From a bacterium (GTDB taxonomy: Bacteria; Patescibacteriota; Saccharimonadia; Saccharimonadales; JAGQNK01): a DNA stretch of 49,324 bases. A model generated the notes under the pieces. It did not search any database and was not told the DNA's origin. It saw only the letters and a list, made by a program, of their open reading frames with translations. Below, piece after piece: positions 1-18,531 of this stretch (its first letter is position 1; each line of letters starts with the position of its first letter). Location of the stretch: contig JAKQHX010000025.1 of the NCBI GenBank assembly GCA_029557815.1, positions 1-49,324 of the forward strand, given 5' to 3'. A program made the translations under genes and the position numbers.

Positions 1-142
1 CGGGGATCGGTACGATTCCGGTGTTTGGCTCTATTGTGGCAAAGGGATAGTTTGCCGCCAAAATATCATTGTCGGTCAAGGCGTTGAAAAGGGTGGATTT
101 GCCGACATTTGGCAATCCGACAATCCCGATAGATAAACTCAT
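1..142 (-). CDS. ychF: Ribosome-binding ATPase YchF/OLA1, N-terminal ~47 codons only (gene continues beyond window start)
   Basis: Reverse-complement translation from CAT at 140-142 gives [47 protein letters not shown]. This carries the P-loop GxPNVGKST plus the ANYPFxTIEPN motif typical of YchF. It is absent from the ORF track because there is no stop in the window. Confidence 0.8.
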
Positions 143-299
143 AAGAATCCATTATAACAGAGGTAAGAGCAAACCCGGATAGTTTGAAGATTGTATTACT
201 TATCCGGATTGCATATTCTTTACGTTTTACGATTTATTGTTATACTTATCAATAATGCATAAGCACTAAAGCTATAAGGGTGCACAAGGCAAATAAACT

Positions 300-929
300 A
301 TGGTGGCCAGGTTCGGCAAAAGAAAAAAAGAGATGGGCAAAACACCTTCCGGCTCAAGCACCGGCCAGCCTGAGCGTATTTCTAACAAGCTTGAACACAA
401 GCTCGTGATTGAAGATAAGCCAATACCTTGGTACCGGCAAAAACGAAATGTAGTGATTATCGTCAGCTTAATTATTGTTGTCATAGGTATCGGAGGCTTT
501 ATCGTGTGGAGTAGCCGCAAGAACGATGCCCCGGCTGATAACAAAAGGGTAGTAGGTAATAACCAGTGTCTCAGCGGAAAAGGTTACGAGCTTGCCAAGA
601 AAGCAGGCGGTATCTTACAGGAAGCCAACAAAGAGAAACAGCTGGAAAAGCTTGTGAAAGATATACAAAAGATTCCGGACTATGAACAAGATCCCGTCTG
701 CTTGGTACCAGTAGTTAAACATCATATCCGTACATGGAAGTTAAATGAGTCCAAAGAGTATCTTGCAAAATTAGAAGCAGTCTACGACCGTCAAAAAGTA
801 TCAGATTTCTATGGTCTTAACTACGATGCACTGGCCGATCTGAAGAAAGCCTTGAAAGGGCTTGAAACGGCAGCGGATAACCTTAATAAGGGTGTAATTT
901 ACCCTCCTGTCAACAATGAAAAGCAGTAG
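300..929 (+). CDS. Hypothetical single-pass membrane protein, cassette copy 1 small subunit (basic N-tail, one TM, helical ectodomain)
   Basis: 209-aa ORF with TM segment VVIIVSLIIVVIGIGGFIVW. The N-tail carries KRKKE, LVIEDK and W-YRQKR motifs shared with the 3113-3733 protein. Its stop overlaps the start of the next gene by 14 nt. An alternative start is ATG 333. Confidence 0.6.
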   Translation: MVARFGKRKKEMGKTPSGSSTGQPERISNKLEHKLVIEDKPIPWYRQKRNVVIIVSLIIVVIGIGGFIVWSSRKNDAPADNKRVVGNNQCLSGKGYELAKKAGGILQEANKEKQLEKLVKDIQKIPDYEQDPVCLVPVVKHHIRTWKLNESKEYLAKLEAVYDRQKVSDFYGLNYDALADLKKALKGLETAADNLNKGVIYPPVNNEKQ

Positions 930-3027
930 CCATATCCTGAGTACAGTTGGACATAAGAAGTTGTCTCACTTCATGATGCAGATGCTTATCGTGGTTGGTG
1001 TACTGTTTGGTATCCTCGTGGTTTTCGCGCCCGAAAGAGCTCATGCCGTTGTCGAAAACCATGAGAATCTGCCGGCGCACGTTACTTTACATTTTTATTA
1101 CGGGAATACTTCCTATGGTCTGCCAAACCGCCGCTGCTGGAACGGTAGTGTCGTGAGAGAAGAAGGCCATGCTCAGTACGCCTGGCTTTCTACGGTGGGA
1201 GGTGTAGGTGGAACGGCGGTCATTAATGAAGGAACTGATTCTGTAGCCTTATGGCTCAATAGCACGACCGCACAGTGTGACAGAAATATTGATGGCGCGG
1301 GCAACCTTATTGGTCGTAGCTTGCAGCGGACGCGTTCGACCTCGATTCTCGCGACCAGTTCTTATGGCAGCCTGAGCTTTTCGTCCCCTAGTGTTACATT
1401 GAATTACGACTGCTCAAATATGTTTAATCTGCGTTGGGTAAAGTTGTGTGGAACGGGTCCCTACGATGTTTTTCCTGATCATCAGGACGTTACACTCTCG
1501 GGTCTGGCGTCCTTACCTCCCGGTACACACACTGTAACGGTACAAGTTTGGCAAAGGATGGTGCATCAATATAGCGGTGGTGTCTACAGGTGCGTGCAAA
1601 ACCCATTCGGTACGGGATACCTAGATTCGATAGATGGCCTTACGGGTAGTAACTGCGGAAACGTTATGGTGCCGGTTACGATCAATATTGAAGTACAGAC
1701 AACTCGTGTCGACGCCGGTAGTTGTGGTGTTACCCCAAGCCTTACCAACCTGTCCCCGAATCAGCCATTTACAGCAGCCTTTACTGCCACAAATTCCGGC
1801 CTGAACGGTGGATTTGTCTGGTCGGTGTATCCACCGAACGGCGAAAAATATCGGTTGCGACGAGTTGCTTCTAGCATACCTGGTGTGCCCGCTGAATATG
1901 ATATAAGAGGCGGGGGTGTAGAGGCAGCGTTTGGGGGGGTCTTGAGGCCTGGAAGAACTGCTTCATGGAGCGAAAGTTTCACTGCGCCCAACGCACTTGG
2001 CCAATTTACAGTGGAGTGGCGGATTTATGGGTATAACGTCAAAGATAACTTCCATTATGTTGGTGCAACGTGTGCGATGACTATCAATGTGGTGGCTAAA
2101 CCTTACTTCAAGGTCTATGGCGGGGATGTATCGGTTGGTAAGGCAGCTCCGGCACCTCCCGCAACGGCCTGTACGGTTAACGCTGCGGCAGACATACGGA
2201 GCTGGCAGCGACTTTACTCGGGTACCACGTATGTAGGTTCCGGCACCCAGCTTGCCCTATTTGCTCTCGATAGCATCGACGGCTTTGCCAGTGGCCAAGA
2301 ACGATACACCTTGCCGCGTAAAAACCTGACGTTTGCCAACACCGGTTCCACAGTCGCCAACTCTACGTACGGAGGAGGTCTTAATGCGGACAACATGCCT
2401 TGCGCAGACGACTACTGGCAGCCAAGTGGTGCAAGCGGTATACCGAGCCCGATTAACCCATCGCATAATGGGTCATACCAAGCAACTGGAAACGTTACTA
2501 TCAACGTTAATCCCGGTGGAATTGGTTCCGGCAATCATGTAACTATATACGTTAACGGCAACGCCTATATTTCAAACAACATCCGATACCAGCCAGCAAC
2601 TTACGGAAACATAGGTCAAATCCCATCATTCCGGCTTATCGTAAGGGGTAACATCTACGTTGCGCCTGGTGTTACGGAGTTAAACGGCACATTTGTAGCA
2701 CTTTCCAATGGCACACCTAATTCCGGCAAGTTTTATACCTGTGGGCAGGCATCAGGCGCCCCGAGCCCTAGTCAGCTAGAGAATGAATGCCGCTGGAATT
2801 TCTTGACAGTATACGGATCCGTCATCGCCGATACGGTTAAGCTCAGCCGGACGGGCGGTACAATCGAACAGGCAAGCTTACCTGAGCTTTATGACCATAA
2901 CTACCTACGTGGAACTACTCAGGGTCCTGCTGAGCGCTTTATTTACACGCCGGAGTTTTGGCTGACAAGCGAGTTTAGTACTGGTGGTGACTCGGGTTCG
3001 TACAAAAACCAACCGCCAGTGCTCTAG
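916..3027 (+). CDS. Large secreted Cys-rich protein, paralog A (variable N-domain, Ig-like segment, conserved ~300-aa C-terminal domain ending PPVL); family unknown
   Basis: 703-aa ORF. The N-terminal hydrophobic segment MLIVVGVLFGILVVFAPERAHA looks like a signal peptide. The C-terminal third is about 75-80% identical to the 3726-5657 protein (KPYFKVYGGDVSVGK, SIDGFASGQERYTLPRKNLTFAN, IGQIPSFRLIVRGNIYVAPGVTELNG, GPAERFIYTPEFWLT, PPVL-stop). Confidence 0.8.
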   Translation: MKSSSHILSTVGHKKLSHFMMQMLIVVGVLFGILVVFAPERAHAVVENHENLPAHVTLHFYYGNTSYGLPNRRCWNGSVVREEGHAQYAWLSTVGGVGGTAVINEGTDSVALWLNSTTAQCDRNIDGAGNLIGRSLQRTRSTSILATSSYGSLSFSSPSVTLNYDCSNMFNLRWVKLCGTGPYDVFPDHQDVTLSGLASLPPGTHTVTVQVWQRMVHQYSGGVYRCVQNPFGTGYLDSIDGLTGSNCGNVMVPVTINIEVQTTRVDAGSCGVTPSLTNLSPNQPFTAAFTATNSGLNGGFVWSVYPPNGEKYRLRRVASSIPGVPAEYDIRGGGVEAAFGGVLRPGRTASWSESFTAPNALGQFTVEWRIYGYNVKDNFHYVGATCAMTINVVAKPYFKVYGGDVSVGKAAPAPPATACTVNAAADIRSWQRLYSGTTYVGSGTQLALFALDSIDGFASGQERYTLPRKNLTFANTGSTVANSTYGGGLNADNMPCADDYWQPSGASGIPSPINPSHNGSYQATGNVTINVNPGGIGSGNHVTIYVNGNAYISNNIRYQPATYGNIGQIPSFRLIVRGNIYVAPGVTELNGTFVALSNGTPNSGKFYTCGQASGAPSPSQLENECRWNFLTVYGSVIADTVKLSRTGGTIEQASLPELYDHNYLRGTTQGPAERFIYTPEFWLTSEFSTGGDSGSYKNQPPVL
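2614..2688 (+). repeat. 75-nt tract perfectly identical to 5265-5339 (inside paralogous C-terminal domains)
   Basis: ggtcaaatcccatcattccggcttatcgtaaggggtaacatctacgttgcgcctggtgttacggagttaaacggc occurs at both positions. Flanking paralogous sequence is only about 80% identical. Confidence 0.9.
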
Positions 3028-3112
3028 AAGAAGTAGAAAACCTATACGGCGTAATGATGGCTCTGATATACTGCTACCAAAGCACAAGCATATAGAAAAA
3101 GGTAAGCTTCTG

Positions 3113-3733
3113 ATGGCAGCGGGGATGGGCAAACCTAAGAAAGAAAAAGCCGATAAATCGGTTGTTGCTGATATGCAAAACCTCCAGGCAAAAACCTCAC
3201 GTAACCCAAGCCACTTACTAGTTGCAGAGGATAAATCAGCTGGCAGAAGTCGGTCTTGGAGGAGCCCAAAGACTAAGGCATTTTATATCTTTGCAGGGAT
3301 TGTTCTGGTAACGGTTTTGGTACTAACGGTATATTTAAAGCTTGTCAAAGAGCAGTCAGAGCTATCAGCGCCAACTGACACGCCTGAACGTGATTTGACC
3401 CAGATAGTAAACAACGACAGTGTCAAAGATGTAGTAAGGCAGTATGGTGCAGAGTATGATACTGCCACGGAGGAGCTAAAAACAAAGAGCACAGAGTGGG
3501 ATAAGGCCAGAATAGATAAGGCGTATTTTAGTCTTTTGTACGCTCATAAGGTAGGTGCATTTAATCAAGTGTATACAATGCTGTCGCTGATTGATGCAGC
3601 GCAGAGGAATGGCCTCAATATTGACGATAATAGTTACGGAATAAGCCAAGATGAACGTGACGCGATTCGAAAACGTGCTGATGTACATGCGCAGAAAGTA
3701 CGGGATAGGCATCAAAGGGGTGGCAATGAGTAA
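3113..3733 (+). CDS. Hypothetical single-pass membrane protein, cassette copy 2 small subunit
   Basis: The ORF track gives 2984-3733. I favour ATG 3113 (MAAGMGKPKKEK...) or ATG 3125, because the upstream part overlaps the end of the previous gene. TM segment is FYIFAGIVLVTVLVLTVYL. N-tail motifs KPKKE, LVAEDK and W-RSPK parallel the 300-929 protein. Confidence 0.6.
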   Translation: MAAGMGKPKKEKADKSVVADMQNLQAKTSRNPSHLLVAEDKSAGRSRSWRSPKTKAFYIFAGIVLVTVLVLTVYLKLVKEQSELSAPTDTPERDLTQIVNNDSVKDVVRQYGAEYDTATEELKTKSTEWDKARIDKAYFSLLYAHKVGAFNQVYTMLSLIDAAQRNGLNIDDNSYGISQDERDAIRKRADVHAQKVRDRHQRGGNE

Positions 3734-5657
3734 GCTACGGCAACTATTGGTCATGTTCCTAATGGTGAGCGCTATTTTTGTGATATCAGGTGGGAAGGCA
3801 GAGGCGGCAAAAACTATCACAGGGACAAGTGGTTCGCCAACTGAATACCGCGCGCTCTGTGATGGCGGGACGCCAGTAGATTTTGCGGCATATCCATCAG
3901 ACGTAAACTTCGACGGTGTTAATTTGACGTATAACATCAACATCCATTGGCAAAGATGCACTGGTACCGAAACGCGAGCGTACGCGATATATGGCGGTGA
4001 GGAAGTATGTCCTGTGTCGGGCACTTACGGTGTTGCGGGTATAGTTACGGATTGTGTCAAGTATATAGGCAGTCCAGAGTATAGTGGGCCTGGTAATGGT
4101 CTGACATGCCCCGAAGGTGTCAATGGGCAATGTGTGACGCCTGCTTTCTCGGGTGCTAGAGTTTCGGCAAATCAACCCTCATCCGCAGGCACTTCGATTA
4201 CAATTCCAATGTCTGTGACTAATAACCTTTGGCTTCTTGCTCCTGATGCAGCAGGCACGTGGACTGTCAGCAACCAGATGTGTCAGTATTACAAAACAGG
4301 TGCAAACTTCACGGTACATAACGACAACCGCTGCATCACGTTAACGATGTCGGTATCATGGGTGCCGACGCCGGTACCTCCTACGATTTCTTGTGGCTCT
4401 GTCACTACCTCCCCGTCAAACCCGGAGCCAGGAGAGAGCTTCACGTTGACTGCTTCATTCTCAACAGACGGTGGTGAGCACGGTGGTAGTAATGACCCCA
4501 CGTTGTATTCTATCCAGGTTGCAATCCCTGCGGCTGGTGTCACGGCACCTGGTCGCTATGCTGCCGCCTATGCATCAATCCCATGGGATGCGGGAAGTGG
4601 CAGCGGTACGCTGCCAAATATCTCGATCGGTGGGGCAAGCGCGCTGCCTATATCCATTGCTACTTCCGGCGTTCACCCGGTGACCTATACTGTTGTTGTG
4701 GATGGCGCAGATAACACGCCTCAAACTTGTACCGGTTCCGTTACTGTTGCCAATAAACCTTACTTCAAAGTCTATGGTGGGGATGTCTCGGTCGGTAAGG
4801 GTAGTGGTGGTTCGGCTTGTGCTACGAATGCCAGCGCTGGTGTCGCTAGTTGGTTGCGGCTTTACTCGGGCGGTATCTACGCCGGCTCTGGTACGCAGCT
4901 GGCAGCATTTGCCCTTGGCAGCATCGACGGCTTTGCAAGTGGACAGGAGCGCTACACGCTGCCGCGTAAAAACTTGACCTTTGCTAATAGTGGCTCGGTA
5001 ATTGCCAATTCAACGTACGGCGGAGACTTGAGTCCGAATAATATGCCCTGCGCGGCTGATTATTGGAGCGATACACCTGCCGGTTCGAGCTTGCCTGCTG
5101 TTATAAATCCGGCTTCTAGCACCACCTATCGCTCCAATACTAATTCTGAGATAAGAGTTGTTCCCACGGGTATCGGAGTAGGGAGAAGCGTAACGGTATA
5201 TGTGGATGGAGACGCGTATATTGCCAGCAACATTATGTACCAACCCTCTATCTACACGGATATTGGTCAAATCCCATCATTCCGGCTTATCGTAAGGGGT
5301 AACATCTACGTTGCGCCTGGTGTTACGGAGTTAAACGGCCTTTTTGTAGCAACAGGTAAGTTTTACACTTGTGGCCAGGCATACGGTCAGCCCACTCCTT
5401 CCCAGCTTGATGGTGATTGTCGTATAAATCGATTGACCGTTCGTGGTAGCGTAATTGCTGATACCATCAAGCTCAGTCGCACAGGAGGTACACTGGCGCA
5501 ATCACAACTTGCCGAGGCCTGGAATCACAATGTTTATAGCTTGGGTTCTGACGGTCCTGCCGAGCGGTTCATATATACTCCTGAATTCTGGTTGACAGGT
5601 GACTTTGATCCAGGGAGCGAAAGCCAGTCCTACAGGACGCTACCGCCGGTATTGTAA
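3726..5657 (+). CDS. Large secreted Cys-rich protein, paralog B (same architecture as 916-3027); family unknown
   Basis: The ORF track gives 3651-5657. ATG 3726 gives MSKLRQLLVMFLMVSAIFVISGGKAEA|AKT, a typical signal peptide, and overlaps the upstream stop by 8 nt. The C-terminal ~300 aa is homologous to paralog A and ends in the same PPVL. Confidence 0.8.
   Translation: MSKLRQLLVMFLMVSAIFVISGGKAEAAKTITGTSGSPTEYRALCDGGTPVDFAAYPSDVNFDGVNLTYNINIHWQRCTGTETRAYAIYGGEEVCPVSGTYGVAGIVTDCVKYIGSPEYSGPGNGLTCPEGVNGQCVTPAFSGARVSANQPSSAGTSITIPMSVTNNLWLLAPDAAGTWTVSNQMCQYYKTGANFTVHNDNRCITLTMSVSWVPTPVPPTISCGSVTTSPSNPEPGESFTLTASFSTDGGEHGGSNDPTLYSIQVAIPAAGVTAPGRYAAAYASIPWDAGSGSGTLPNISIGGASALPISIATSGVHPVTYTVVVDGADNTPQTCTGSVTVANKPYFKVYGGDVSVGKGSGGSACATNASAGVASWLRLYSGGIYAGSGTQLAAFALGSIDGFASGQERYTLPRKNLTFANSGSVIANSTYGGDLSPNNMPCAADYWSDTPAGSSLPAVINPASSTTYRSNTNSEIRVVPTGIGVGRSVTVYVDGDAYIASNIMYQPSIYTDIGQIPSFRLIVRGNIYVAPGVTELNGLFVATGKFYTCGQAYGQPTPSQLDGDCRINRLTVRGSVIADTIKLSRTGGTLAQSQLAEAWNHNVYSLGSDGPAERFIYTPEFWLTGDFDPGSESQSYRTLPPVL
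5265..5339 (+). repeat. Second copy of the 75-nt perfectly identical tract (see 2614-2688)
   Basis: Exact match read directly from the sequence. Confidence 0.9.
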
Positions 5658-5812
5658 GATACGTATTTATCTGTTTGCGTACGAAAGGCTTATGCTATAC
5701 TGAAATAAATATGAATTCCACTTGCATAAAAATCCTGAGGAATTCTAGAAAAAGTGGGCAACATGATAGAAAGAAAAGTAGCAAAACATACGGAAGGCCA
5801 AGGAGATAACCT

Positions 5813-6853
5813 ATGAGTCTCATAAGTGGTGTCTCCGACTTTTTCGGCCTGGATATAGGCACGACAGCTGTCCGTTTAGTGAACCTGAAGGGAAGTGGTC
5901 CTGTGAAATCACTTTCCCGCTATGCGTATGCACCGATTGATAGCAAGATATCTTTGAGCGATGCCAAGGCTGACCAGCAAAAGCTTGCAGCCGTGGTTCG
6001 TGACCTTGTGGCTGAGTCTCGTATCTTGACTCGGAACGTTGCCGTGGGCTTGCCATCGCAAAGAGTGTTTACGACCGTAGTGGATGTGGATCGTCTATCT
6101 CCAGGTGAACTTGCTAAGTCTATTCGCTACCAGGCTGATTCACTAATCCCGACTCCCCTGGACACTTCCAAGCTCGATTGGGCGGTTATCGGTGACTCGC
6201 CAAAGGACAAGAATAAAGTTGAATTATTGCTCACAAGTGTAACGAACGAATTCGTTGAGAACCGTTTGGATATGCTGGAGTCAATCGGCCTCAACGTAAT
6301 TGCCTTCGAGCCAGATAACCTGGCGTTGACGCGGGCTATGCTGGCTCCGGATGCAACGTTGCCCCAAATGGTCTTAGATATTGGCAATAAGAGTACTGAT
6401 TTGGTTATAGCCATGAACGGCGCGCCGCGTCTGACCCGATCAATACCAACCGGCTCTGAGGCAATCATTCGGGCAGCTGTACAGAACCTGAACATTGATG
6501 AGAAGCAGGCAGAACAATTTGTATTCAAGTTCGGACTGAGCAAGGAGAAGCTCGAAGGACAGATTTACCAATCTATCATCGGTACGATTGACCTTTTGGC
6601 CGGAGAGATAGAAAAATCTATCAAGTTTTTCCAAACCAGGTACGGCGATGTGAAACTGGACCGTATCATCGTAACTGGCGGCGCTTCGGCACTACCGGAA
6701 TTCCCGCTCTATATTGCCAATAAATTTGGTATTAGCGTAGAGATCGGTAATGCTTGGCGCAATGTCAGCTTCTCGCCAGATAAGCAAAACGAGCTTTTGA
6801 CAGTGTCGAATCACTTCGGCGTAGCTGCAGGACTCGCGGAGAGGTCTGAATAA
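5813..6853 (+). CDS. pilM: Type IV pilus assembly protein PilM (actin-like ATPase fold)
   Basis: N-terminal FGLDIGTTAVRLV motif, 346 aa, and first gene of a pilM-N-O-B-T-C block. Confidence 0.9.
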   Translation: MSLISGVSDFFGLDIGTTAVRLVNLKGSGPVKSLSRYAYAPIDSKISLSDAKADQQKLAAVVRDLVAESRILTRNVAVGLPSQRVFTTVVDVDRLSPGELAKSIRYQADSLIPTPLDTSKLDWAVIGDSPKDKNKVELLLTSVTNEFVENRLDMLESIGLNVIAFEPDNLALTRAMLAPDATLPQMVLDIGNKSTDLVIAMNGAPRLTRSIPTGSEAIIRAAVQNLNIDEKQAEQFVFKFGLSKEKLEGQIYQSIIGTIDLLAGEIEKSIKFFQTRYGDVKLDRIIVTGGASALPEFPLYIANKFGISVEIGNAWRNVSFSPDKQNELLTVSNHFGVAAGLAERSE

Positions 6854-6855
6854 AT

Positions 6856-7581
6856 ATGATTCAATTTAACCTACTGCCCGATGTAAAACTCGAATATATC
6901 AAGGCACGGCGTGCTAAGCATCTGGTTCTGCTCACATCAATCATAGTGACAGCGGTTTCTGTGGGAATTATGATGGTTCTGTTTTTTGGCGTGAATGTTG
7001 TTCAGAAGAGGCATCTAGGCAATCTGAGCAAAGACATATCAGAAAAAACTGATCAGCTGAAAAAAGAGGAAGATATAGACAAGATTTTGACGGTACAAAA
7101 CCAGCTTAACAACCTGAATACGCTCCATGATGCAAAGCCTGCCGCCGAAAGGTTGGGGGGCTATCTCGAAAAAGTTACACCAAATGAGGTGGCAATATCC
7201 AAGCTGACGGTTGACTTCGGGGCCAATACCATTAAATTTGAAGGTAATGCAAAGGCGCTGAGATACGTCAATCAGCTTATCGATACCATGAAGTTCTCTG
7301 AATATAAGCTCACCGAAGTTGGAGAAGACAACGAGCCTATTATTACTAGGAGCGCAGCATTTTCTAGTGTGGTACTTGCCTCATTTGATAGAAAAGATGG
7401 AGAAGACGCCTTGCCTGTATCGTACGAGATTACTGCAAGCTTTGACCCGATTATCTTTAATATCACCAAAAAAGTATCGCTGGAAATACCTCCTTCGATG
7501 ATTACTACCCGGTCGGTCACAGAACGGCCAACCCCACTATTTCAGCCGCAAGCCTCTGATGAGACAGAGGGAGGAGAATAA
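6856..7581 (+). CDS. pilN: Type IV pilus assembly protein PilN-like
   Basis: Begins MIQFNLLPD (the INLLP-type PilN signature) followed by one TM. It lies 3 nt downstream of pilM. Confidence 0.75.
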   Translation: MIQFNLLPDVKLEYIKARRAKHLVLLTSIIVTAVSVGIMMVLFFGVNVVQKRHLGNLSKDISEKTDQLKKEEDIDKILTVQNQLNNLNTLHDAKPAAERLGGYLEKVTPNEVAISKLTVDFGANTIKFEGNAKALRYVNQLIDTMKFSEYKLTEVGEDNEPIITRSAAFSSVVLASFDRKDGEDALPVSYEITASFDPIIFNITKKVSLEIPPSMITTRSVTERPTPLFQPQASDETEGGE

Positions 7582-7583
7582 TC

Positions 7584-8273
7584 ATGGCAAAAGGTATGCA
7601 ACGTATCTCGACCAAAAAAATACAGATAGATAAGGCAAATTCCGTGATTGTCGCTGCGGTTGGTATAGCCGCTTTCCTCGTTACATTCTCGCTCATATCA
7701 ACTAAGTCACTGTTATCTAGGCGGGCATACCAGGCTCGGGTCATTACTGCGCAAGAACAGGCAAGGGATAAACTAGACGAAAATATTAACTCCGTAAAAG
7801 ACCTGAAGACCCGCTACTATGAGTTCGTCGGCCGTAGCGAAAACATCATAAAAGGTTCAAGTACCGGAAAAAGCCCAAATGATGGCGACAATGCCCGGAT
7901 CATTCTTGATGCACTCCCCAGTAAGTACGACTATCCGGCGCTCGCATCCAGCCTTGAAAAAATCGTCAAGGATAGAGGTTACATCATACATTCGATGACG
8001 GGTATCGACCAAGAGGTTGAGCAAAACAGTACAGAATCATCTGGTGTACAGCAGGCCGTTGAAATGCCTTTTGAGTTGACAGCTGAAGGTTCATATAAAG
8101 GCATCGTAGACCTGCTGGTGGCCTTTCGTCGCTCAATTCGACCATTTCATGTACAGGTTCTGACCTTTGAAGCGGAAGAAGATGACGTCGATGCCGTGAA
8201 GCTCGGCATACAAGGTAAATCATACTATCAGCCCGAACGTACGTTAAGTATCACCGAGGAAGTTGTGCAATGA
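7584..8273 (+). CDS. pilO: Type IV pilus assembly protein PilO-like
   Basis: Single TM, then a coiled-coil and a C-terminal alpha/beta domain (ALPSKYDYPAL..., GSYKGIVDLLVAF) resembling PilO. Position after pilN supports the call. Confidence 0.6.
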   Translation: MAKGMQRISTKKIQIDKANSVIVAAVGIAAFLVTFSLISTKSLLSRRAYQARVITAQEQARDKLDENINSVKDLKTRYYEFVGRSENIIKGSSTGKSPNDGDNARIILDALPSKYDYPALASSLEKIVKDRGYIIHSMTGIDQEVEQNSTESSGVQQAVEMPFELTAEGSYKGIVDLLVAFRRSIRPFHVQVLTFEAEEDDVDAVKLGIQGKSYYQPERTLSITEEVVQ

Positions 8274-8515
8274 AACAAAAAGATGTAGCGCTTATTATTG
8301 TTATCGTATTCGTGGGCGGTATTATGTCGTTTTTCATATCGAACAAGTTTATCAGTTCGCCAAAGCATGACCTAAAGGCTGCAAAGATTGAACCCATTAC
8401 TTCGGAGTTCACAGAACCAAGTAGCGCCTATTACAACAAAGATTCAATCAACCCAACCCAACTTATACGAATCAATGACAACAAGAACGAAAAACCGTTT
8501 ATTGAGGGACAGTAG
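8270..8515 (+). CDS. Small membrane-anchored protein in the pilus operon (unknown; PilP-position)
   Basis: 81-aa ORF with TM ALIIVIVFVGGIMSFFI. It overlaps pilO by 4 nt (ATGA), which suggests translational coupling. Confidence 0.5.
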   Translation: MKQKDVALIIVIVFVGGIMSFFISNKFISSPKHDLKAAKIEPITSEFTEPSSAYYNKDSINPTQLIRINDNKNEKPFIEGQ

Positions 8516-8545
8516 CTGCTGCTTAAAACAAAAGGATAGACCAAT

Positions 8546-10360
8546 ATGAGCGTTTTATCGGCAGAAGCCCAAAAGCAAGTCGAAGAAAGATTAGTTGCCG
8601 AGAAACTCATAAGCTCGGCAGAGCTTGCAGATATCAAAAAAAAAGCAGAAGCTGAAAACAAGCCCTTCATGGGTATGCTGATAGCAGATAGTAAGGTTAC
8701 TAACGAGCAGCTTACCCGAACGATAGCACATGTGACGAATGTGCCCTACGTCAACCTGACCAATGCCCAGATTGACCAAGAGATACTAGCACTTCTACCC
8801 AAAGAAATTGCCGAACGATACATGGCTGTACCATTAGGTGAAATGCAGCGCCGCTTGGTAGTGGCAATGCTTGATGCAGGTAACGTGCAGGCAGTGGACT
8901 TTTTGGCCAACAAAATTGGTCGCCCGCTCAAGGTATACTCTGCGAGTGAAGAGGGTATTCGTAGTGTTATCAAACAATACGAAGGCGCGAGCCTTGGTAA
9001 GGAGATGGAGGCTGCCCTTGGCGCTCAGCAGCAGCAAGACCAGCAGGTTCAAGATGAAGAGGCTGCAACTAAGAAGACAAAAGGCAAGCAGGACAACAAA
9101 ATTCAGACAATTGTCCAGGATTCGCCTATCAGTAAAGCGCTATCGACCATCCTGGACTATGCAGCCAAGAACCGTGCTAGCGACATCCATATTGAGCCCT
9201 TGGAGCATGAGCTCAAGATACGTTGCCGGATTGATGGGGTACTTCGCGAAATCATGAAGTTACCCAAAAGTACTGAGCCGCCTCTGGTTTCACGTATCAA
9301 GATTCTCGCTAACCTAAAGATTGACGAACATCGTATCCCGCAGGATGGCCAGTTTACGATACATTCTGGGGATAAGGACATTGACCTGCGTATCGCTATT
9401 TCTCCTGTTGTATGGGGGGAACAGGTGGTCATTCGTCTGCTCGACAAGTCTGGTACAACCTTGAAGCTCGAGGACATGGGTTACAAAGGCCGGGCCCTGC
9501 GAGCAATTCGTGAAGGCATTAAGTCATCTAACGGGATGGTCCTTACTTCCGGCCCGACCGGTTCGGGTAAGTCGACCTCTATGTACGCGCTCATCCAGGA
9601 GATAAAAAGTGACGGCATCAATATCGTCACGCTTGAAGACCCGGTGGAGTACAAGGTGGGTGGAGTCAATCAAATCCAAGTAAATGCAGATGTTGGACTG
9701 ACGTTTGCTGCCGGTCTACGGTCTATCTTGCGTCAAGACCCGGATGTTGTGATGGTCGGAGAAATCCGCGACAAAGAAACCGCACAGCTAGCTGTGCAGG
9801 CGGCCCTGACAGGACACCTTGTGTTTAGTACGCTTCATACCAACTCAGCAGCTGGTATTTTGCCGCGTCTGCTTGACATGGGTATCGAGCCGTTCCTGAT
9901 AGCTAGTACGGTACGGACGGTCATTGGACAGCGACTGGTGCGTAGAATCAGCGAAGAAGGAAAGCAAAGTTATCAATCTGATGCCGCAGAAACAGAGGCC
10001 CTGCACGAAGTACTGGGCAAGTTGCTGCCTGAGAAAGACGCCGAGATGGCAGCGGTCGCGCAGGATCTTGGCTATGAAAGCTTGCCTCTGAAGGGGCAAA
10101 ACGCTTATACTTTGTTCAAGGGCATGGATAGCCCTGCCTCTCCAGGGGGATATAAGGGTCGTATGGGGTTATATGAAGTATTCCCCGTATCTGACGCCAT
10201 CAAGGCGCTCATCCTGAAGCGAGCAACTAGTTCGGAAATCCAGAAGGTTGCAGAAGCCGAGGGGATGGTAAGCATGAGAGAAGACGGCTATCTGAAAGCC
10301 TTAGCAGGCTATACGACATTATCAGAGGTAAACCGCGTAGCGGCAGCCGACAACGCATAA
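8546..10360 (+). CDS. pilB: Type IV pilus assembly (extension) ATPase PilB / GspE family
   Basis: N-terminal T2SSE_N-like domain, Walker A GPTGSGKST, RQDPDVVMVGEIRD, and the tetracysteine-less C-terminal domain typical of PilB. Confidence 0.93.
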   Translation: MSVLSAEAQKQVEERLVAEKLISSAELADIKKKAEAENKPFMGMLIADSKVTNEQLTRTIAHVTNVPYVNLTNAQIDQEILALLPKEIAERYMAVPLGEMQRRLVVAMLDAGNVQAVDFLANKIGRPLKVYSASEEGIRSVIKQYEGASLGKEMEAALGAQQQQDQQVQDEEAATKKTKGKQDNKIQTIVQDSPISKALSTILDYAAKNRASDIHIEPLEHELKIRCRIDGVLREIMKLPKSTEPPLVSRIKILANLKIDEHRIPQDGQFTIHSGDKDIDLRIAISPVVWGEQVVIRLLDKSGTTLKLEDMGYKGRALRAIREGIKSSNGMVLTSGPTGSGKSTSMYALIQEIKSDGINIVTLEDPVEYKVGGVNQIQVNADVGLTFAAGLRSILRQDPDVVMVGEIRDKETAQLAVQAALTGHLVFSTLHTNSAAGILPRLLDMGIEPFLIASTVRTVIGQRLVRRISEEGKQSYQSDAAETEALHEVLGKLLPEKDAEMAAVAQDLGYESLPLKGQNAYTLFKGMDSPASPGGYKGRMGLYEVFPVSDAIKALILKRATSSEIQKVAEAEGMVSMREDGYLKALAGYTTLSEVNRVAAADNA

Positions 10361-10549: not shown

Positions 10550-11620
10550 ATGGCTGCTCAACAACCAAGAATAGAAATCCTCTTAGAGGAAGTCATCAAG
10601 AAAAAAGCGTCTGACCTTCATATTCAGGTAGGTTTGCCACCTATGCTACGTGTTGACGGCCAATTACTTGCTATTTCTGGTACAGAAGTACTCACAGAGG
10701 AAACCGTTGAGACGCTGATTTTTGCTATTCTGGATGAAGACCAGAAACAAATCTTGCTCAAGGACAAGGAGTTTGACTTTAGTTTTGCCTTTGGGGATCT
10801 GGGGCGCTTCCGTGTCAACGCCTTTCATGAACGGGGCAACCTGGCTGCTGCACTGCGCTTGATCCCGAACGAAATCCTTACCATCGAGCAGCTTGGTTTG
10901 CCGCCTGTGGTCAATAAGTTTGCGGAATATCCTCGGGGGCTCGTGCTTGTTACTGGACCAACCGGTTCCGGTAAGTCGACGACGCTTGCTGCGCTCCTAC
11001 ACAAAATCAATATGGAACGTGCCGCCCACGTCGTAACGATAGAGGACCCAATAGAGTTCACTCATACGTCACAGAAGTCGGTCATCGTGCAGCGCGAAGT
11101 TCACTACGATACGTATTCGTTCTCGGCAGCTCTCCGTTCTAGTTTGCGTCAAGACCCGGATGTTGTGCTCATCGGAGAAATGCGTGATCTAGAGACCATT
11201 GCAGCAGCTATCACCATTGCCGAAACCGGCCACTTGGTGTTCGCTACACTTCACACTAACTCGGCGGCACAGTCCATCGATCGTATGATAGATGTTTTCC
11301 CACCGCACCAGCAGCCGCAGGTACGGTCACAGCTTGCAAATATCCTGATGGCTATCTGCGCCCAACGTTTGGTACCGGCCATCGGCGGTGGTAGAATAGC
11401 GGCAGCAGAAATCTTGGTGGCTACGCCAGCAGTGCGCAATATCATCAGGGAAGGAAAGAGTCACCAGCTTGAGGCGGTCATTCAGACCGGAGCCGAGTTT
11501 GGTATGCAATCCATGGACAAGACACTGGTCAATCTGATTCATAACGGTACAGTTACATACGATGAAGCACGTATGATAGCGGTAGATATTGACGAATTAG
11601 ACAGGCTTATGAGAGGTTAA
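10550..11620 (+). CDS. pilT: Twitching motility (retraction) ATPase PilT
   Basis: 356 aa with ASDLHI, Walker A GPTGSGKSTT, RQDPDVVLIGEMRD, GHLVFATLHTNSA and the AIRNLIREGK-like motif (AVRNIIREGK). Confidence 0.93.
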   Translation: MAAQQPRIEILLEEVIKKKASDLHIQVGLPPMLRVDGQLLAISGTEVLTEETVETLIFAILDEDQKQILLKDKEFDFSFAFGDLGRFRVNAFHERGNLAAALRLIPNEILTIEQLGLPPVVNKFAEYPRGLVLVTGPTGSGKSTTLAALLHKINMERAAHVVTIEDPIEFTHTSQKSVIVQREVHYDTYSFSAALRSSLRQDPDVVLIGEMRDLETIAAAITIAETGHLVFATLHTNSAAQSIDRMIDVFPPHQQPQVRSQLANILMAICAQRLVPAIGGGRIAAAEILVATPAVRNIIREGKSHQLEAVIQTGAEFGMQSMDKTLVNLIHNGTVTYDEARMIAVDIDELDRLMRG

Positions 11621-11716: not shown

Positions 11717-12940
11717 ATGTTGACGTATAAATATACTGCCCGCGATGCGGCTACAGGGAAGAAGATTACCGCAGAGGTCCAAGCTGCAAGTGAACAAGCA
11801 GCCGCAAAGTTACTTCGTGACCAGGGCTTGTCACCGATTGAAATTACACCCTTGAGCAGTGGTGGCAGTAATCCTATATCCCGGTTCAAGAACCGTATAA
11901 AGATAAAAGACAAGATTCTATTTTCCCGTCAGTTATCTACGCTGATAAACGCCGGCTTGCCGTTGGTCCAATCACTTCGCACGGTGGGTGGACAGACACA
12001 GAACAAGGCGCTCAAGATAGTCATTCAGGATGTTATTACGGACGTGGAGTCTGGTTCGGCGCTTTCTGTCGCCCTAGGGAAACATCCTACCGTGTTCAAT
12101 GAGATATACATTAGCCTTATCGCTGCCGGCGAAGCATCCGGTACGCTTGATAAATCACTGGAACGCCTCGCGAACCAGCAGGAAAAAGACGCTGAAATAC
12201 TCAGCAAGGTCAAAGGAGCTATGGTATACCCGGTTATCGTGCTGGTGGTAATGGGCCTTGTTATCGGATTTATGCTTATCAAGGTTATGCCGCAAGTGGA
12301 GCAATTGTACGAGGGTATGGGTGGTGGTGCTCAGTTGCCAATCGTAACCCGCATATTATTGTCCGTGTCTGATTTGCTCATCAAATTCTGGTATGTGGTT
12401 TTGATCGCAATGGGTTTGATGGCCTTCTTCGTCTCGCGCTGGGCGCGGACGTTTGGTGGTAAGCGTTATATAGACAGGTTCAAGATGCGTACACCGCCGC
12501 TGTCGAGCTTATTTATGAAGATGTACATGGCGCGTTTTGCCCGCACGGGTACAACGTTGGTTGCCAGTGGTGTACCGCTTATCCAGGTGCTGGAGATAAC
12601 ATCCAAGAGTATAAATAACGTTCATCTCGAAGACTCGATTAAAAGAGCCACTGAGAAGGTCAAAGGAGGTAAGGCTCTCTCCGAATCGATAGTCAACGAT
12701 CCTAACTTTTTGCCCTTGGTACCAGATATGCTGCGCATAGGTGAACAGTCCGGCTCTATAGAGCAGATGATGGAGAAGACGGCTGACTACTATGAAAAAG
12801 AAGTGGACAATGAGATTAAGGCCATATCAACCATTATCGAACCGATGTTGATGGTACTGCTCGGAATCGTGGCATTCGTAATCGTAGCAGCCGTACTGCT
12901 GCCGATTTATAGCCTGGCTGGCCAGGGTATCAGCGTCTAA
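11717..12940 (+). CDS. pilC: Type IV pilus platform protein PilC (T2SSF family, two repeats)
   Basis: 407 aa with a duplicated T2SSF domain pattern (FSRQLSTLINAGLPL... and FARTGTTLVASGVPL...) and three TM regions. Confidence 0.9.
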   Translation: MLTYKYTARDAATGKKITAEVQAASEQAAAKLLRDQGLSPIEITPLSSGGSNPISRFKNRIKIKDKILFSRQLSTLINAGLPLVQSLRTVGGQTQNKALKIVIQDVITDVESGSALSVALGKHPTVFNEIYISLIAAGEASGTLDKSLERLANQQEKDAEILSKVKGAMVYPVIVLVVMGLVIGFMLIKVMPQVEQLYEGMGGGAQLPIVTRILLSVSDLLIKFWYVVLIAMGLMAFFVSRWARTFGGKRYIDRFKMRTPPLSSLFMKMYMARFARTGTTLVASGVPLIQVLEITSKSINNVHLEDSIKRATEKVKGGKALSESIVNDPNFLPLVPDMLRIGEQSGSIEQMMEKTADYYEKEVDNEIKAISTIIEPMLMVLLGIVAFVIVAAVLLPIYSLAGQGISV

Positions 12941-13071: not shown

Positions 13072-13524
13072 ATGTATCAAAATCTAAAAAAGAAAACAGA
13101 AGGCTTCACTATCATCGAAGTCCTGATCGTCTTGGCTATCGCCGGACTGATCATGCTGATCGTATTCCTGGCAGTACCTGCCTTGCAACGAAACAGCCGT
13201 AATAATGCACGGACGCAGTCAGCTTCCAAGATAGCGGCGGCAATGACGGATTGTCTGTCAAACCGCAACTATGTATTTGCATCTTGTGATAGCGCAGCTG
13301 AACTAAGTAACCCGGTAGGTACTGGTGATGCACTATCCACGGTGAGCTTCGGTGGTGCTGCTTACTCACAAACAGATGCACGTGTCGTAAACGGTGGTAA
13401 CGTGGTTTGTAATGCCGATGGTAGCGCACCACAAGCAGGTGGTGGTCCACGCTCATTCGTCGTTACCTTCCAGCTTGAAGGTGCCGGCGGCGGTACCGGT
13501 CCGAACCGTTGTGTAGGCGCATAG
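13072..13524 (+). CDS. pilA: Major type IV pilin (class III signal peptide)
   Basis: MYQNLKKKTEG|FTIIEVLIVLAIAGLIMLIVF has the canonical G/F cleavage site and Glu5. There are four Cys in the globular part. A strong terminator follows. Confidence 0.85.
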   Translation: MYQNLKKKTEGFTIIEVLIVLAIAGLIMLIVFLAVPALQRNSRNNARTQSASKIAAAMTDCLSNRNYVFASCDSAAELSNPVGTGDALSTVSFGGAAYSQTDARVVNGGNVVCNADGSAPQAGGGPRSFVVTFQLEGAGGGTGPNRCVGA

Positions 13525-13599: not shown

Positions 13600-14427
13600 A
13601 TGAATATTCTTATACTTATAGCGTTCGGCCTGTGCTTTGGTAGTTTTGTGAATGCGTTTGTTTGGCGTCTACACGAGCTTGAGACAAAGAAAAGGCTAAC
13701 GAGCAACCAAAAGAAAGTTCTATCGCCACTATATGGCCGATCTATGTGTGTTCACTGTAAGCACGAGCTAGCCTGGCATGACTTGCTGCCAGTCGTGAGT
13801 TGGCTATCGCTTGGGGGCAAGTGCCGTTATTGCGGCAAACCTATCAGCTGGCAGTACCCGGTCGTAGAACTCCTGACGGCTGGGTTATTTGTGTTGTCTT
13901 ATGCTACCTGGCCGTATGGTTTTGAGCCGGCAAGCGTAGCACTCTTCACACTCTGGCTAGTGTTCTTGGTCGGGTTTATGGCATTGGCAGCCTATGACAT
14001 CCGCTGGATGCTTCTACCGAACAGAATCGTTTATCCGCTGATTGGTCTTGCTGTACTGCAGGTAGTCATTAGGATATTGTTGACCGGAGACATCGCCGGT
14101 ACTGTTAGCGGTGCGCTTTTGGGCTTCCTGGCCATCGGAGGATTGTTTTACGTGCTGTTTCAGGTCTCTGGCGGCAAATGGATGGGAGGTGGCGATGTGA
14201 AGCTGGCGTTCATGATTGGTCCGCTCGTAGGCTCGGGAGCACTCAGTTTAATGGTGATCTTTTTCGCCTCGCTATTGGGCACGTTAGTCTCGTTGCCGTT
14301 CCTAGCAAAAAAATCTATAAAGGCAAACGACAGGATTCCATTCGGGCCATTTCTGATTACCGCAACAATACTTGTGTACCTGTATGGTGGCCGTATCTTG
14401 GAATGGTATACCCAAGGGTTACTTTGA
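13600..14427 (+). CDS. pilD: Prepilin peptidase / N-methyltransferase PilD (peptidase A24)
   Basis: N-terminal CxxC...CxxC zinc cluster (CVHCKH...CRYCGK), multiple TMs and the GGGDVKL active-site motif. Confidence 0.9.
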   Translation: MNILILIAFGLCFGSFVNAFVWRLHELETKKRLTSNQKKVLSPLYGRSMCVHCKHELAWHDLLPVVSWLSLGGKCRYCGKPISWQYPVVELLTAGLFVLSYATWPYGFEPASVALFTLWLVFLVGFMALAAYDIRWMLLPNRIVYPLIGLAVLQVVIRILLTGDIAGTVSGALLGFLAIGGLFYVLFQVSGGKWMGGGDVKLAFMIGPLVGSGALSLMVIFFASLLGTLVSLPFLAKKSIKANDRIPFGPFLITATILVYLYGGRILEWYTQGLL

Positions 14428-14493: not shown

Positions 14494-15387
14494 ATGAAAG
14501 GCCGGGGGAGCCACGCCAATACCCATACTGATACCCCTGTTACTAAAAACAGGGTTCTGAGAATTTTGCGCACTTCAAGCACAGGTTACACTATTACAGA
14601 GGTAATGATATTCTTGGCTGTGACGACGGGTATTTTTGTTATGGTGGCAAGCACGTTCAGCCAACGCCAGCGAAACACCGAATTTAACACCGCTGCGCGG
14701 GAAATAGAATCCCAGGTTCAGGATATTGCAAATGACATCACCACTGGCTTCTATAGCAGCACAGAAGGCTTCAGGTGTACTACCACTGGGCCTCTTAGTG
14801 ATAGGGTGCCCAATATCACACCGGCGCCTCCAGGAGGCGGCCAGCAAGGGACGAGCCAGGATTGTATACTGGTGGGACGTGCGATACATTTCGTAGGAGC
14901 TTCGGCTGGTGAGTCATACAACGTCTACTCAGTTGCCGGTGCGCGTAGGACGTCGGTTTCTTCTGATGAACGGAACGTCGAGAATTATAACGAGGCAAAC
15001 CCGAGGGCTATAACAGCCGCCGGCATGGTAGAAACAAAGCAGGTTCCAAGGGGGCTTACCATTAGGGGTATGCGCATTGGCGGTGGAGGTGGGACGGTAA
15101 TTAATGGTGTAGGATTTTTCACGACGTTTGGGGCGGCTGCCTCTGCGAATCCAACGGCGCTGAGCGTGAACCTGGTTCCCCTCACTGGTAGTACTTCCGC
15201 CAATATGGAATCAGCTATTAACTCGGTTTCAGATGCTACGCCAATAAATCCGGCCGGAGGTGTTGTAGTCTGTATGGATGACGCAGGTACAAATCAACGG
15301 GCCTTGCTCAGGATTGGTACCCAAAATAGCCGGTTGACTACAGAGGTGGTAATGGAGAGTGGGACATGCGCAGCGGCAGGCTTCTAA
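14494..15387 (+). CDS. Pilin-like (minor pilin) protein with atypical prepilin site
   Basis: The long leader ends ...TSSTG|YTITEVMIFLAVTTGIFVMV. Glu5 is present, and +1 is Tyr rather than Phe. Confidence 0.7.
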   Translation: MKGRGSHANTHTDTPVTKNRVLRILRTSSTGYTITEVMIFLAVTTGIFVMVASTFSQRQRNTEFNTAAREIESQVQDIANDITTGFYSSTEGFRCTTTGPLSDRVPNITPAPPGGGQQGTSQDCILVGRAIHFVGASAGESYNVYSVAGARRTSVSSDERNVENYNEANPRAITAAGMVETKQVPRGLTIRGMRIGGGGGTVINGVGFFTTFGAAASANPTALSVNLVPLTGSTSANMESAINSVSDATPINPAGGVVVCMDDAGTNQRALLRIGTQNSRLTTEVVMESGTCAAAGF

Positions 15388-15803
15388 GGCGGTTGGGTGA
15401 AGGCGGCGATACTATCGTTGAAGTACTGTTGGCGATTGCAGTGGTGTCAGCGGTTTTGGGCGGTGCTTTCGTGTCCGCTAATAGGTCACTTAACGGTACC
15501 CGCGTATCTCAGGAGCGTTCAGAGGCAACCAAGCTAGTCCAGAGCCAAGCCGAGCTGTTGAGTGCAGCAACCAAAGACCCCGCTGCGTCGGCTGATATCT
15601 TTGCTAACGTGGGAGTTGGCAATACCTTCTTTCTGAACAACAACCTAAGTCGAGGTGGCGCCAGCACTACCAGAGGCATTTATACTATTTTGATCCGTCG
15701 CGAAGCTCCGAACACCTTTTTGGTCAGAGCACAGTGGCAAAAGACAGGAAGCGGCACAGCAGAAGAGATGTTCATAAGGTATAGGGCATATCCAAACCCA
15801 TGA
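15366..15803 (+). CDS. Pilin-like (minor pilin) protein with atypical prepilin site
   Basis: MRSGRLLRRLGEGG|DTIVEVLLAIAVVSAVLGG has Glu5 present and +1 Asp. It overlaps the previous gene by 22 nt. Confidence 0.6.
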   Translation: MRSGRLLRRLGEGGDTIVEVLLAIAVVSAVLGGAFVSANRSLNGTRVSQERSEATKLVQSQAELLSAATKDPAASADIFANVGVGNTFFLNNNLSRGGASTTRGIYTILIRREAPNTFLVRAQWQKTGSGTAEEMFIRYRAYPNP

Positions 15804-16423
15804 GGCAACACAAACGTATCAACCAAAAACAAAAAGGTTTTACCTTGGTAGAACTTATGATAGCCAGTGCTGTTTTCGCGACAGTACTGTTGCTATGTAC
15901 CTATGGACTCCTGGAGATAGGTCGGTCCTACTATAAAGGTGCCACGATTAGCCGGACCCAGGAGACTGCCCGATTAATTACGGATGATGTGGTCGAAGCG
16001 GTTCAGTTTACTGGCGGTGGAGTTTTTGGAAATGAGGCAGCTGGATGGCATTGTATTGGCAACAAGCGCTATAGTTTTACGCGCAATGTGCAGCGAAGGG
16101 ATACCGCGCCTGTGAGGCCCCATGTACTAATGTCCGAAACAGTCCCCGCATGCAGCGGCACAAGCGGCAAGAACGGGTCAGTCGATACAGGTACACTCAC
16201 CGGAACGGATGCGAAAGAGCTCATGAACATGAGAATGCGGCTTACGAGGTTCTCTATTACACCACTAAATAACGACCTATATGAAATTACAATCAGAGTT
16301 GTAAGCGGGGATGATGACATGTTAGAAACGATTAGTGGTGAGACAGTATGTCGCAATGACAGGATTCTTTCACAGTTCTGTGCGGTGTCTCAACTAACAA
16401 CAATTGCACGAAAGAGGGTGTAG
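15800..16423 (+). CDS. Pilin-like (minor pilin) protein
   Basis: MRQHKRINQKQKG|FTLVELMIASAVFATVLLL is a canonical class III signal. The gene overlaps its upstream neighbour by 4 nt. Confidence 0.75.
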   Translation: MRQHKRINQKQKGFTLVELMIASAVFATVLLLCTYGLLEIGRSYYKGATISRTQETARLITDDVVEAVQFTGGGVFGNEAAGWHCIGNKRYSFTRNVQRRDTAPVRPHVLMSETVPACSGTSGKNGSVDTGTLTGTDAKELMNMRMRLTRFSITPLNNDLYEITIRVVSGDDDMLETISGETVCRNDRILSQFCAVSQLTTIARKRV

Positions 16424-18469: not shown

Positions 18470-18531
18470 AAGTGCAGTGCGTTGATAACTTTGCTATACT
18501 GGTGAAAATACATAAAGAAGGATTATTTTAC

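Follow-up and report, generated by a model that had tools for sequence, protein, structure and literature searches.

The PilY1/PilC proteins (IPR008707/PF05567) are large non-pilins that carry a type I signal peptide, vary at the N-terminus, are conserved at the C-terminus and occur as paralogues (10.64898/2026.09.18.752573). In Neisseria, PilC's final 12 residues are disordered in the monomer model, and they dock on PilK, a minor pilin, by β-strand addition; this 12-residue 'plug' is needed, and is enough, for localization to the tip (10.64898/2026.09.18.752573). Here, we describe a gene cassette whose products resemble PilY1/PilC in design but are unrelated to them. It lies in a stretch of 49,324 nucleotides (nt), referred to below as 'the window' (GenBank assembly GCA_029557815.1, contig JAKQHX010000025.1, positions 1–49,324), from a bacterium of the Saccharimonadales (Patescibacteriota), and it comprises two tandem pairs of a small and a large gene (small1–large1 and small2–large2), followed by a complete type IV pilus (T4P) locus. 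T4P are essential in the few Saccharibacteria that have been cultured, and we know of no tip adhesin identified for their main, retractile pilus. We put at about one half the probability that the cassette is an accessory module of the Saccharibacteria T4P, analogous to PilY1, in which a conserved C-terminal domain (the 'C-domain') and a short tail dock on a component of the pilus, and a variable head is displayed.

The features shared with PilY1/PilC are several. Here, too, a large protein that begins with a type I signal peptide and is no pilin joins a variable N-terminus to a conserved C-terminus; paralogues differ in the head; the genes accompany those of the pilus; and a short, conserved tail is disordered in the monomer model. 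In other respects the two differ. There is no relationship of sequence or fold, the C-domain being solenoid-like and that of PilY1 a β-propeller. The host is a monoderm bacterium of the candidate phyla radiation (CPR), whereas PilY1/PilC occur in diderms; the gene usually stands first in the pilMNO-BTC cluster and not inside the minor-pilin operon; and a dedicated TPR- or SurA-like membrane partner is encoded alongside. Docking on a minor pilin is, for the present proteins, something we infer. Tapirins, from Caldicellulosiruptor, likewise belong to a monoderm and are surface proteins other than pilins, with genes next to a type IV pilus locus; we know of no conserved C-terminal tail or paired chaperone gene among them. 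The Pam pili of CPR bacteria are built from donor-strand-exchange pilins, PamA and PamB, and their operon lies beside ATP synthase genes (10.64898/2026.03.03.709456). Judged by gene context and description, this is another system, which we set aside: the cassette belongs to the pilMNOBTC locus, and the principle is different.

Gene neighbourhood is the strongest evidence for a link with the pilus. We compared the window with 64 related loci, L001–L003 and 61 more that came from a scan of one genome per species; almost all of the latter are labelled Saccharibacteria or Saccharimonadales. In L001–L003, which encode distant homologues (31–48% identity), the large gene lies between a divergent ychF and pilM. 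Flanks could be assessed in 60 loci, and T4P genes adjoin the cassette in every one of them, a strongly positive outcome for the conserved synteny with pilus genes that the original prediction, made from the sequence of the window, had proposed as a check. In ∼50 loci, the large gene ends 45–250 nt before pilM-pilN-pilO-pilB-pilT. A locus has between one and three copies; two or three stand in tandem in L002/L028 (one and the same contig), L008, L016, L026, L033, L035, L048 and L059. In eight loci pilM does not follow directly, and here the cassette is found in, beside or near the block of minor-pilin and PilX-like genes: it comes immediately downstream of the PilX-like gene in L055, lies tail-to-tail with that gene in L035, L047, L056 and L057, and is divergent from it in L043. 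In L018 (3094–4029) and L025 (3358–4272), xerD and ndk, at the 3' end of the pilus locus, have a small-plus-large cassette exactly between them. These two genes are adjacent at the same position in the window, and across genomes the cassette takes either end of the locus. In Southlakia epibionticum ML1, an oral species that has been cultured, pilM (SEML1_0104) comes right after ychF (SEML1_0103), and so the cassette is accessory at this position. The published inventory of T4P components of strain TM7x lists nothing of the kind. Accessory status fits an adhesin better than a core part of the machine.

The same cassette also occurs in contigs and proteins that bear the labels Nevskiaceae, Burkholderiaceae, Acidobacteriota, Limnocylindria or Binatia (L012, DATLCF010000001.1; L058, JAYVTZ010000005.1; P0036; P0190; P0203). 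L012 and L058 have the pilM–pilT synteny typical of Saccharibacteria, with pilM 72–76% identical to that of the window, and are probably mis-binned contigs.

The module that defines the family is the C-domain, which is rich in β-strands and ∼310 residues long. Large1 and large2 are 64% identical over their last ∼320 residues only (E 1e-135), and their N-terminal ∼330–385 residues do not align. A word-indexed search with large1 returned 23 proteins, each without a Pfam domain and each matched through the C-domain only; those that are named are hypothetical proteins of Candidatus Saccharimonadales. Querying the index again, this time with the C-domain profile, brought up no proteins other than unnamed or 'hypothetical' ones, from metagenome bins. 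Exhaustive searching with a profile made from the C-domain alignment yielded 6,532 representatives at E ≤1e-3 and 2,842 at E ≤1e-30 (counted after clustering at 50%), and in all 150 members listed the C-domain runs to the last residue of the protein. The family alignment is conserved in the C-domain only. Four of its cysteines are invariant, or nearly so, in line with an extracytoplasmic location.

We could place this domain in no known family, and neither could the original prediction, for either protein. Scans of all four cassette proteins against Pfam, NCBIfam and PHROGs gave nothing significant, and among PDB sequences the C-domain profile met with chance matches only (E ∼0.6). A single Pfam family, DUF7305 (PF23981), came up repeatedly, and each time it lay on the same part of the C-domain: in four of 23 members, in P0028, and in two of 10 headless members (described below). 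Its scores range from 12 to 18.5 bits (12.2 for large1, 16.2 for P0203 and 18.5 for P0028), short of the gathering cut-off of 27 bits; DUF7305 is a Pfam family without known function, of which we found no mention in the literature. Nor did we find there any description of the C-domain family. A monomeric AlphaFold model of the C-domain, made with an alignment of 79 sequences, has a predicted local distance difference test (pLDDT) score of 83 and a predicted TM-score (pTM) of 0.86. It is composed mostly of short β-strands in a solenoid-like arrangement, and is consistent with a β-solenoid. Foldseek found no significant match to it (best E 0.3 in the PDB and 0.17 in BFVD), and no confident match, by hidden Markov model or by structure, tied it to a family unrelated to the cell surface. 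The weak top matches are all solenoids or helices: ComZ, ice-binding DUF3494 proteins and tapirins. ComZ, a minor pilin of Thermus thermophilus with a large β-solenoid domain (PDB 6qvi), is the best of these in the PDB and is, likewise, associated with a pilus, but as a match it lacks significance (E 0.3, probability 0.47, TM-score 0.15–0.22) and, unlike ComZ, which has the N-terminal helix of a pilin, the large proteins have an ordinary signal peptide. Tapirins (PDB 6n2b and 6n2c) are β-helical as well; their C-terminal domains match at E 6.8–8.8, which is no real structural match. Tests for membership placed the family outside PilY1/PilC, the pilins, DUF7305 and the sortase-type class. A phage tail-fibre origin is not supported, since tblastn against 50,697 phage records gave no match. 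The family appears to be undescribed and restricted to the CPR.

The tail is, together with a KPYFKVYGGD motif, the most conserved block of the family. Among 146 members, the last 11 residues have the consensus Y-D-[SA]-I-T-S-L-P-P-[VI]-L (YDSITSLPPVL), with 2.5–4.2 bits at the individual positions and 3.3 bits per position for the block. The five residues that precede them form a variable, G/S/T-rich linker that is poorly conserved, and in the model of the C-domain the tail is disordered (pLDDT <50 at residues 306–319 of the model) and is not packed against the rest of the domain. Open reading frames (ORFs) ending in [LMQ]P[PS][VILAT][LFY] number 69 among the 1,130 of the window and all related loci, compared with 0.07 expected by chance. 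In four loci, headless members of 363–418 amino acids (aa), in which the signal peptide is directly followed by the C-domain, are encoded directly upstream of pilM. Many headless-type proteins of ∼370–400 aa are also present in databases (P0182–P0209). Two further proteins encoded directly upstream of pilM have N-terminal parts unrelated to the family. One (L014, 10774–11817) possesses the tail only (...WDSIINLPPVL), after a Pro/Tyr-rich linker with a YAYPTP-type repeat, and the other (L032, 7295–8602) keeps only the last ∼33 residues of the family. Such headless and tail-only proteins at pilM suggest that the functional element shared by all is the tail. The proposal that the C-domain and its PPVL end may act as an anchoring module gains support from the exceptional conservation of the tail, its disorder in the monomer model and the tail-only proteins at the same position. 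We reject a sortase or other C-terminal sorting signal: there is no LPXTG-type signal, and the proteins end at ...LPPVL, with no hydrophobic segment, basic tail or other residues beyond it.

At their N-termini, large1 and large2 have a hydrophobic segment and then an AxA-type site (AHA↓V and AEA↓A, the latter in large2), as read from the sequence. They have the type I signal peptide and no features of pilins; none of the four cassette proteins matches the type IV pilin N_methyl family in a Pfam scan, and the class III signal, or N-methylation motif (G↓F/Y-T-L-I-E), is found in the pilins downstream. With a signal peptide, conserved cysteines, and partners in which a basic N-tail precedes a transmembrane segment, the large proteins look extracytoplasmic; a cytoplasmic location, which would have spoken against the original prediction, finds nothing in its favour among these features. 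AlphaFold models an immunoglobulin-like (Ig-like) β-sandwich at residues ∼250–390 of large1, which matches FW/Ig-like domains weakly in Foldseek (E ∼2e-3, TM-score 0.6–0.7 on the target). In the model of the full-length monomer, the head is poor (pLDDT <50 at residues 38–196) and residues 500–650 are well defined, and in a Foldseek search of this model only the Ig-like domain was matched. Alignment and modelling together bear out the predicted order of signal peptide, divergent head, Ig-like part, conserved C-domain and shared PPVL end.

A different N-terminal head, of ∼200 aa and with the motifs GAAFII.TM and Y.IK..CANP.G, recurs in the family and is absent from the proteins of the window. 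No match to it came from Pfam or from PDB sequences, and it might be enzymatic. It occurs in P0005, P0028, P0029, P0031, P0035, P0040–P0042, P0045, P0049–P0051 and P0057–P0061.

Nearly every full-length large gene is preceded by a gene for a protein of 120–210 aa, sometimes ∼330 aa, that has a short basic tail, one transmembrane segment and a helical ectodomain. In most cases the stop of this gene overlaps the start of the large one by 1–14 nt, most often 4 nt, and the recurrence of such overlaps in most loci favours the translational coupling suggested for the window, where they are 14 nt (small1/large1) and 8 nt (small2/large2). The partners are only ∼12% identical to each other. Significant TPR matches occur in 18 of 44 (best 3e-12), and the partner in L038 matches SurA_N_3 (E 1.7e-9; 38.1 bits, above the Pfam cut-off). 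In the window, small1 has a basic cytoplasmic N-tail, one transmembrane segment (residues ∼51–72; hydrophobic maximum 3.23 at residue 51) and a helical ectodomain of ∼135 aa, the two cysteines of which form a C...DPxC motif. Small2 has the same architecture. The two are barely similar by BLAST (E 0.066, over the N-terminal 50 residues only), but a profile of the small1 subfamily matches residues 1–78 of small2 (hhalign E 4e-5). It is plausible, then, that the tail and transmembrane part share an ancestor, and the ectodomains are not demonstrably homologous. The common architecture that had been predicted for the small proteins is borne out in the layout of N-tail, transmembrane segment and helical ectodomain. 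When small1 was the query of a homology search, the only matches were small1 itself and a single close relative. Partners of its subfamily, which contain cysteines, also occur in L035, L048, L050, L055 and L039, and the subfamily compares with the TPR-positive partners at an hhalign probability of 80% (E 1.5e-5). Small1 and small2 themselves have no TPR match and no SurA-like match, and reach no Pfam threshold.

In general form, these partners resemble envelope chaperones and escorts, such as the PilF/PilW-type TPR pilotins and PpiD, PrsA and SurA. They are membrane-tethered and outward-facing, carry, in a number of loci, TPR repeats or a SurA_N_3 domain, and are translationally coupled to a large, β-rich, secreted client. 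By this resemblance, a partner would be a dedicated, membrane-tethered chaperone or escort, either for the head or for the folding of the large protein. The small proteins of the window differ from those chaperones in falling below Pfam thresholds, the TPR-likeness of small1 coming from the profile comparison. We reject the small protein as the receptor of the tail: it is unlikely in this role because the tail is conserved while the partners are highly divergent, even in type of fold, and because headless forms keep the tail and have no partner.

Fusions of a partner-like N-terminus (basic tail and transmembrane segment) to a full large protein are found in P0079 (1284 aa) and P0153 (1332 aa; L033:5149–9147). 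The N-terminus of P0079 matches SurA_N_3 (E 3.3e-10, 40.5 bits). At the junction of each there is a signal-peptide-like remnant, and they are either real fusions or frameshift artefacts of overlapping genes. An exception to the pairing is found in L002, where two large copies (4383–6923 and 7953–10181) have no small transmembrane partner; between them, a gene on the minus strand encodes a secreted, Ser/Thr-rich protein of 298 aa. In L061, from the closest related genome (SRP144015_co1_53), masked bases (N) interrupt the orthologue of small1 at 4300–4560, and only residues 112–209 can be compared (80% identity).

We envisage that the module would work in the following way. The large protein would be exported first, by the Sec pathway, and would then be chaperoned or escorted by its cognate small protein, the TPR-like or SurA-like ectodomain of which faces outward from the membrane. 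The C-domain and tail would next dock on a conserved component of the pilus. We take the likeliest target to be the complex of four minor pilins at the tip, to which the PilX/GspK-like one belongs, and the mode of docking might be β-strand addition, as it is for the 12-residue plug in which Neisseria PilC ends. In this way the variable head would be displayed on the pilus, and would bind host cells or other surfaces, and tandem paralogues would provide alternative heads for a single docking site. In its most explicit form, we offer this reading tentatively, as somewhat less probable than not: the cassette would be a lineage-specific, non-homologous counterpart of PilY1, in which a portable tail of ∼11 residues, of the YDSITSLPPVL type and usually borne on a new β-solenoid domain, plugs interchangeable host-recognition heads onto the tip of the pilus, each head having its own membrane-tethered, TPR/SurA-like chaperone.

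Several observations weigh against an adhesin displayed on the pilus. The analogy with PilY1 is one of architecture and context only, and the models are of monomers; PF05567 gives no match at E-values up to 1, and no PilY1 structure is among the PDB matches of the C-domain in Foldseek. No head matches a known adhesin domain in the Pfam and other scans of family members. The heads of orthologues are not hypervariable: P0003, a full-length orthologue of large2 (61% identical), shares 67% identity with it in the head and 65% in the C-domain, and large1 and a close relative are 79% identical over the N-terminal 408 residues and 92% over the last 111. With orthologous heads about as conserved as C-domains, such comparisons speak against strong diversifying selection on the heads. 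Most copies adjoin pilM, moreover, and not the minor pilins, and the fusions P0079 and P0153 would be anchored in the membrane by their N-termini unless processed, which fits a cell-bound protein better than one bound to the tip.

These last points lead to the alternative that, though improbable in our estimation, survives best. The C-domain and tail might anchor the protein to the envelope near the pilus machine, on the ectodomains of PilN or PilO, on the wall or on a small membrane protein, and the head would be a short-range adhesin that acts after the pilus has retracted. Most copies do adjoin pilM-pilN-pilO; a membrane-anchored partner is encoded with almost every one; the fusion proteins carry an N-terminal transmembrane segment; and the Pro/Tyr-rich linker before the tail in L014, which also counts against display on the pilus, resembles the wall-spanning regions of wall-anchored surface proteins. 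A study published in Cell in 2023, furthermore, proposes that Saccharibacteria have additional, close-range adhesins. Other observations speak against this alternative. The small protein is an unlikely receptor for the reasons given above, no known wall-anchoring motif is present, the LPPVL end has neither a transmembrane segment nor a charged tail, and the eight loci in which the cassette is near minor pilins do not adjoin pilMNO.

We consider it rather more doubtful that the cassette encodes a factor for the biogenesis or working of the pilus, the C-domain and tail of which would prime or stabilize the minor-pilin complex, or help the fibre through the wall or S-layer, the heads being secondary. 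The headless proteins, which are little more than a C-domain, stand directly upstream of pilM, as such a role might lead one to expect, and the weak top structural match is a β-solenoid minor pilin, ComZ. The plug of PilC, too, is needed for pilus biogenesis, through its stabilization of PilK (10.64898/2026.09.18.752573). S. epibionticum, however, has essential T4P genes and, at the position between ychF and pilM, no cassette, which makes the family no universal core part of the machine unless a copy is present at another place in that genome. One to three copies per locus, with heads that cannot be aligned, would be unusual for a component of a machine. Least probable of all is that the C-domain and tail are an export or targeting signal for the pilus or a type II secretion system (T2SS)-like machine, and the heads effectors or enzymes released on the host: diverse N-terminal modules on a conserved C-terminal one, the possibly enzymatic GAAFII-type head of many members and the chaperone-like partners encoded alongside would suit such cargo, but no head matches an enzyme or toxin family in Pfam or PDB sequence scans, Sec signal peptides are already present in a monoderm with no outer membrane to cross, and Ig-like spacers are typical of displayed rather than released proteins.

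The coordinates of the locus are collected in the table. The ORF listing agrees with the predicted layout in all four cassette genes, their strand, the overlaps and the gap of 155 nt between the stop of large2 and the start of pilM at 5813. A scan of the region for promoters and terminators gave no more sites than in shuffled sequence, and no terminator-like hairpin was seen in the gap before pilM. A possible promoter in this gap (5675–5701; TTGCGT, 15 nt, TGcTATACT, with an extended -10) has a -10 element, TATACT, that resembles the one upstream of small1, and a 15-nt spacing that lies outside the criteria of the scan.

Table. Features of the cassette and pilus locus in the window, with headless members in related loci; lengths and remarks as available
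Feature	Position	Strand	Length	Remarks
ychF (GTPase), 5' end	1–150	-		YchF N-terminus; divergent; conserved left border of the locus; translation identical to the YchF ORF of L061
Promoter-like site upstream of small1	219–246	+		TTTACG-16-TATACT, TG before -10; weak evidence
small1	300–929	+	209 aa	From ORF listing
large1	916–3027	+	703 aa	From ORF listing; signal peptide, Cys-rich orphan head (residues ∼45–250), Ig-like β-sandwich (∼250–390), C-domain (385–703), tail
C-domain of large1	2068–3024	+		Family-defining module; 64% identical to that of large2
Tail of large1	2992–3024	+		...GSYKNQPPVL; proposed docking ('plug') motif
small2	3113–3733	+	206 aa	From ATG at 3113; longest ORF from GTG at 2984
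large2	3726–5657	+	643 aa	From ATG at 3726; longest ORF from 3651; signal peptide (AEA↓A), head (residues 29–219), Ig-like segment (220–333), C-domain (334–643), tail
C-domain of large2	4725–5654	+		From sequence alignment
Tail of large2	5622–5654	+		...QSYRTLPPVL
pilM	5813–6853	+		
pilN-like gene	6856–7581	+		
pilO-like gene	7584–8273	+		
ORF	8270–8515	+	81 aa	
pilB	8546–10360	+		
pilT	10550–11620	+		
pilC	11717–12940	+		
Major pilin	13072–13524	+		
Prepilin peptidase	13600–14427	+		
Three minor pilins	14494–15387, 15366–15803, 15800–16423	+		
PilX/GspK-like protein	16426–17523	+	365 aa	
xerD (XerC/D-like tyrosine recombinase)	17537–18469	-		Closes the pilus locus
ndk	18472–19089	+		Adjoins xerD at the end of the pilus locus
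Headless members	L040:5899–7035, L046:5809–7065, L049:5917–7008, L052:5812–6999			Tail PPVF or PPIF; no small partner gene

The family bears on how ultrasmall, episymbiotic bacteria recognize their hosts. The analysis adds to what had been predicted for this locus the TPR/SurA-like, chaperone-type small partners, the size of the family, its headless and tail-only variants, and the finding that a cultured oral Saccharibacterium lacks the cassette at the ychF–pilM position. The family is large, unannotated, linked exclusively to the pilus, and modular, and this is the profile expected of a determinant of host specificity. Its short, conserved tail offers a direct handle on function. Since the cassette is absent from the ychF–pilM position in the oral model organism, the experimental systems in current use may have overlooked it. 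If display of variable heads on the pilus is the correct reading, the solution of a plug on a minor pilin would have had a separate origin in monoderm CPR bacteria, and on another fold, and the set of cassettes in a genome would help to determine the hosts to which an episymbiont can attach.

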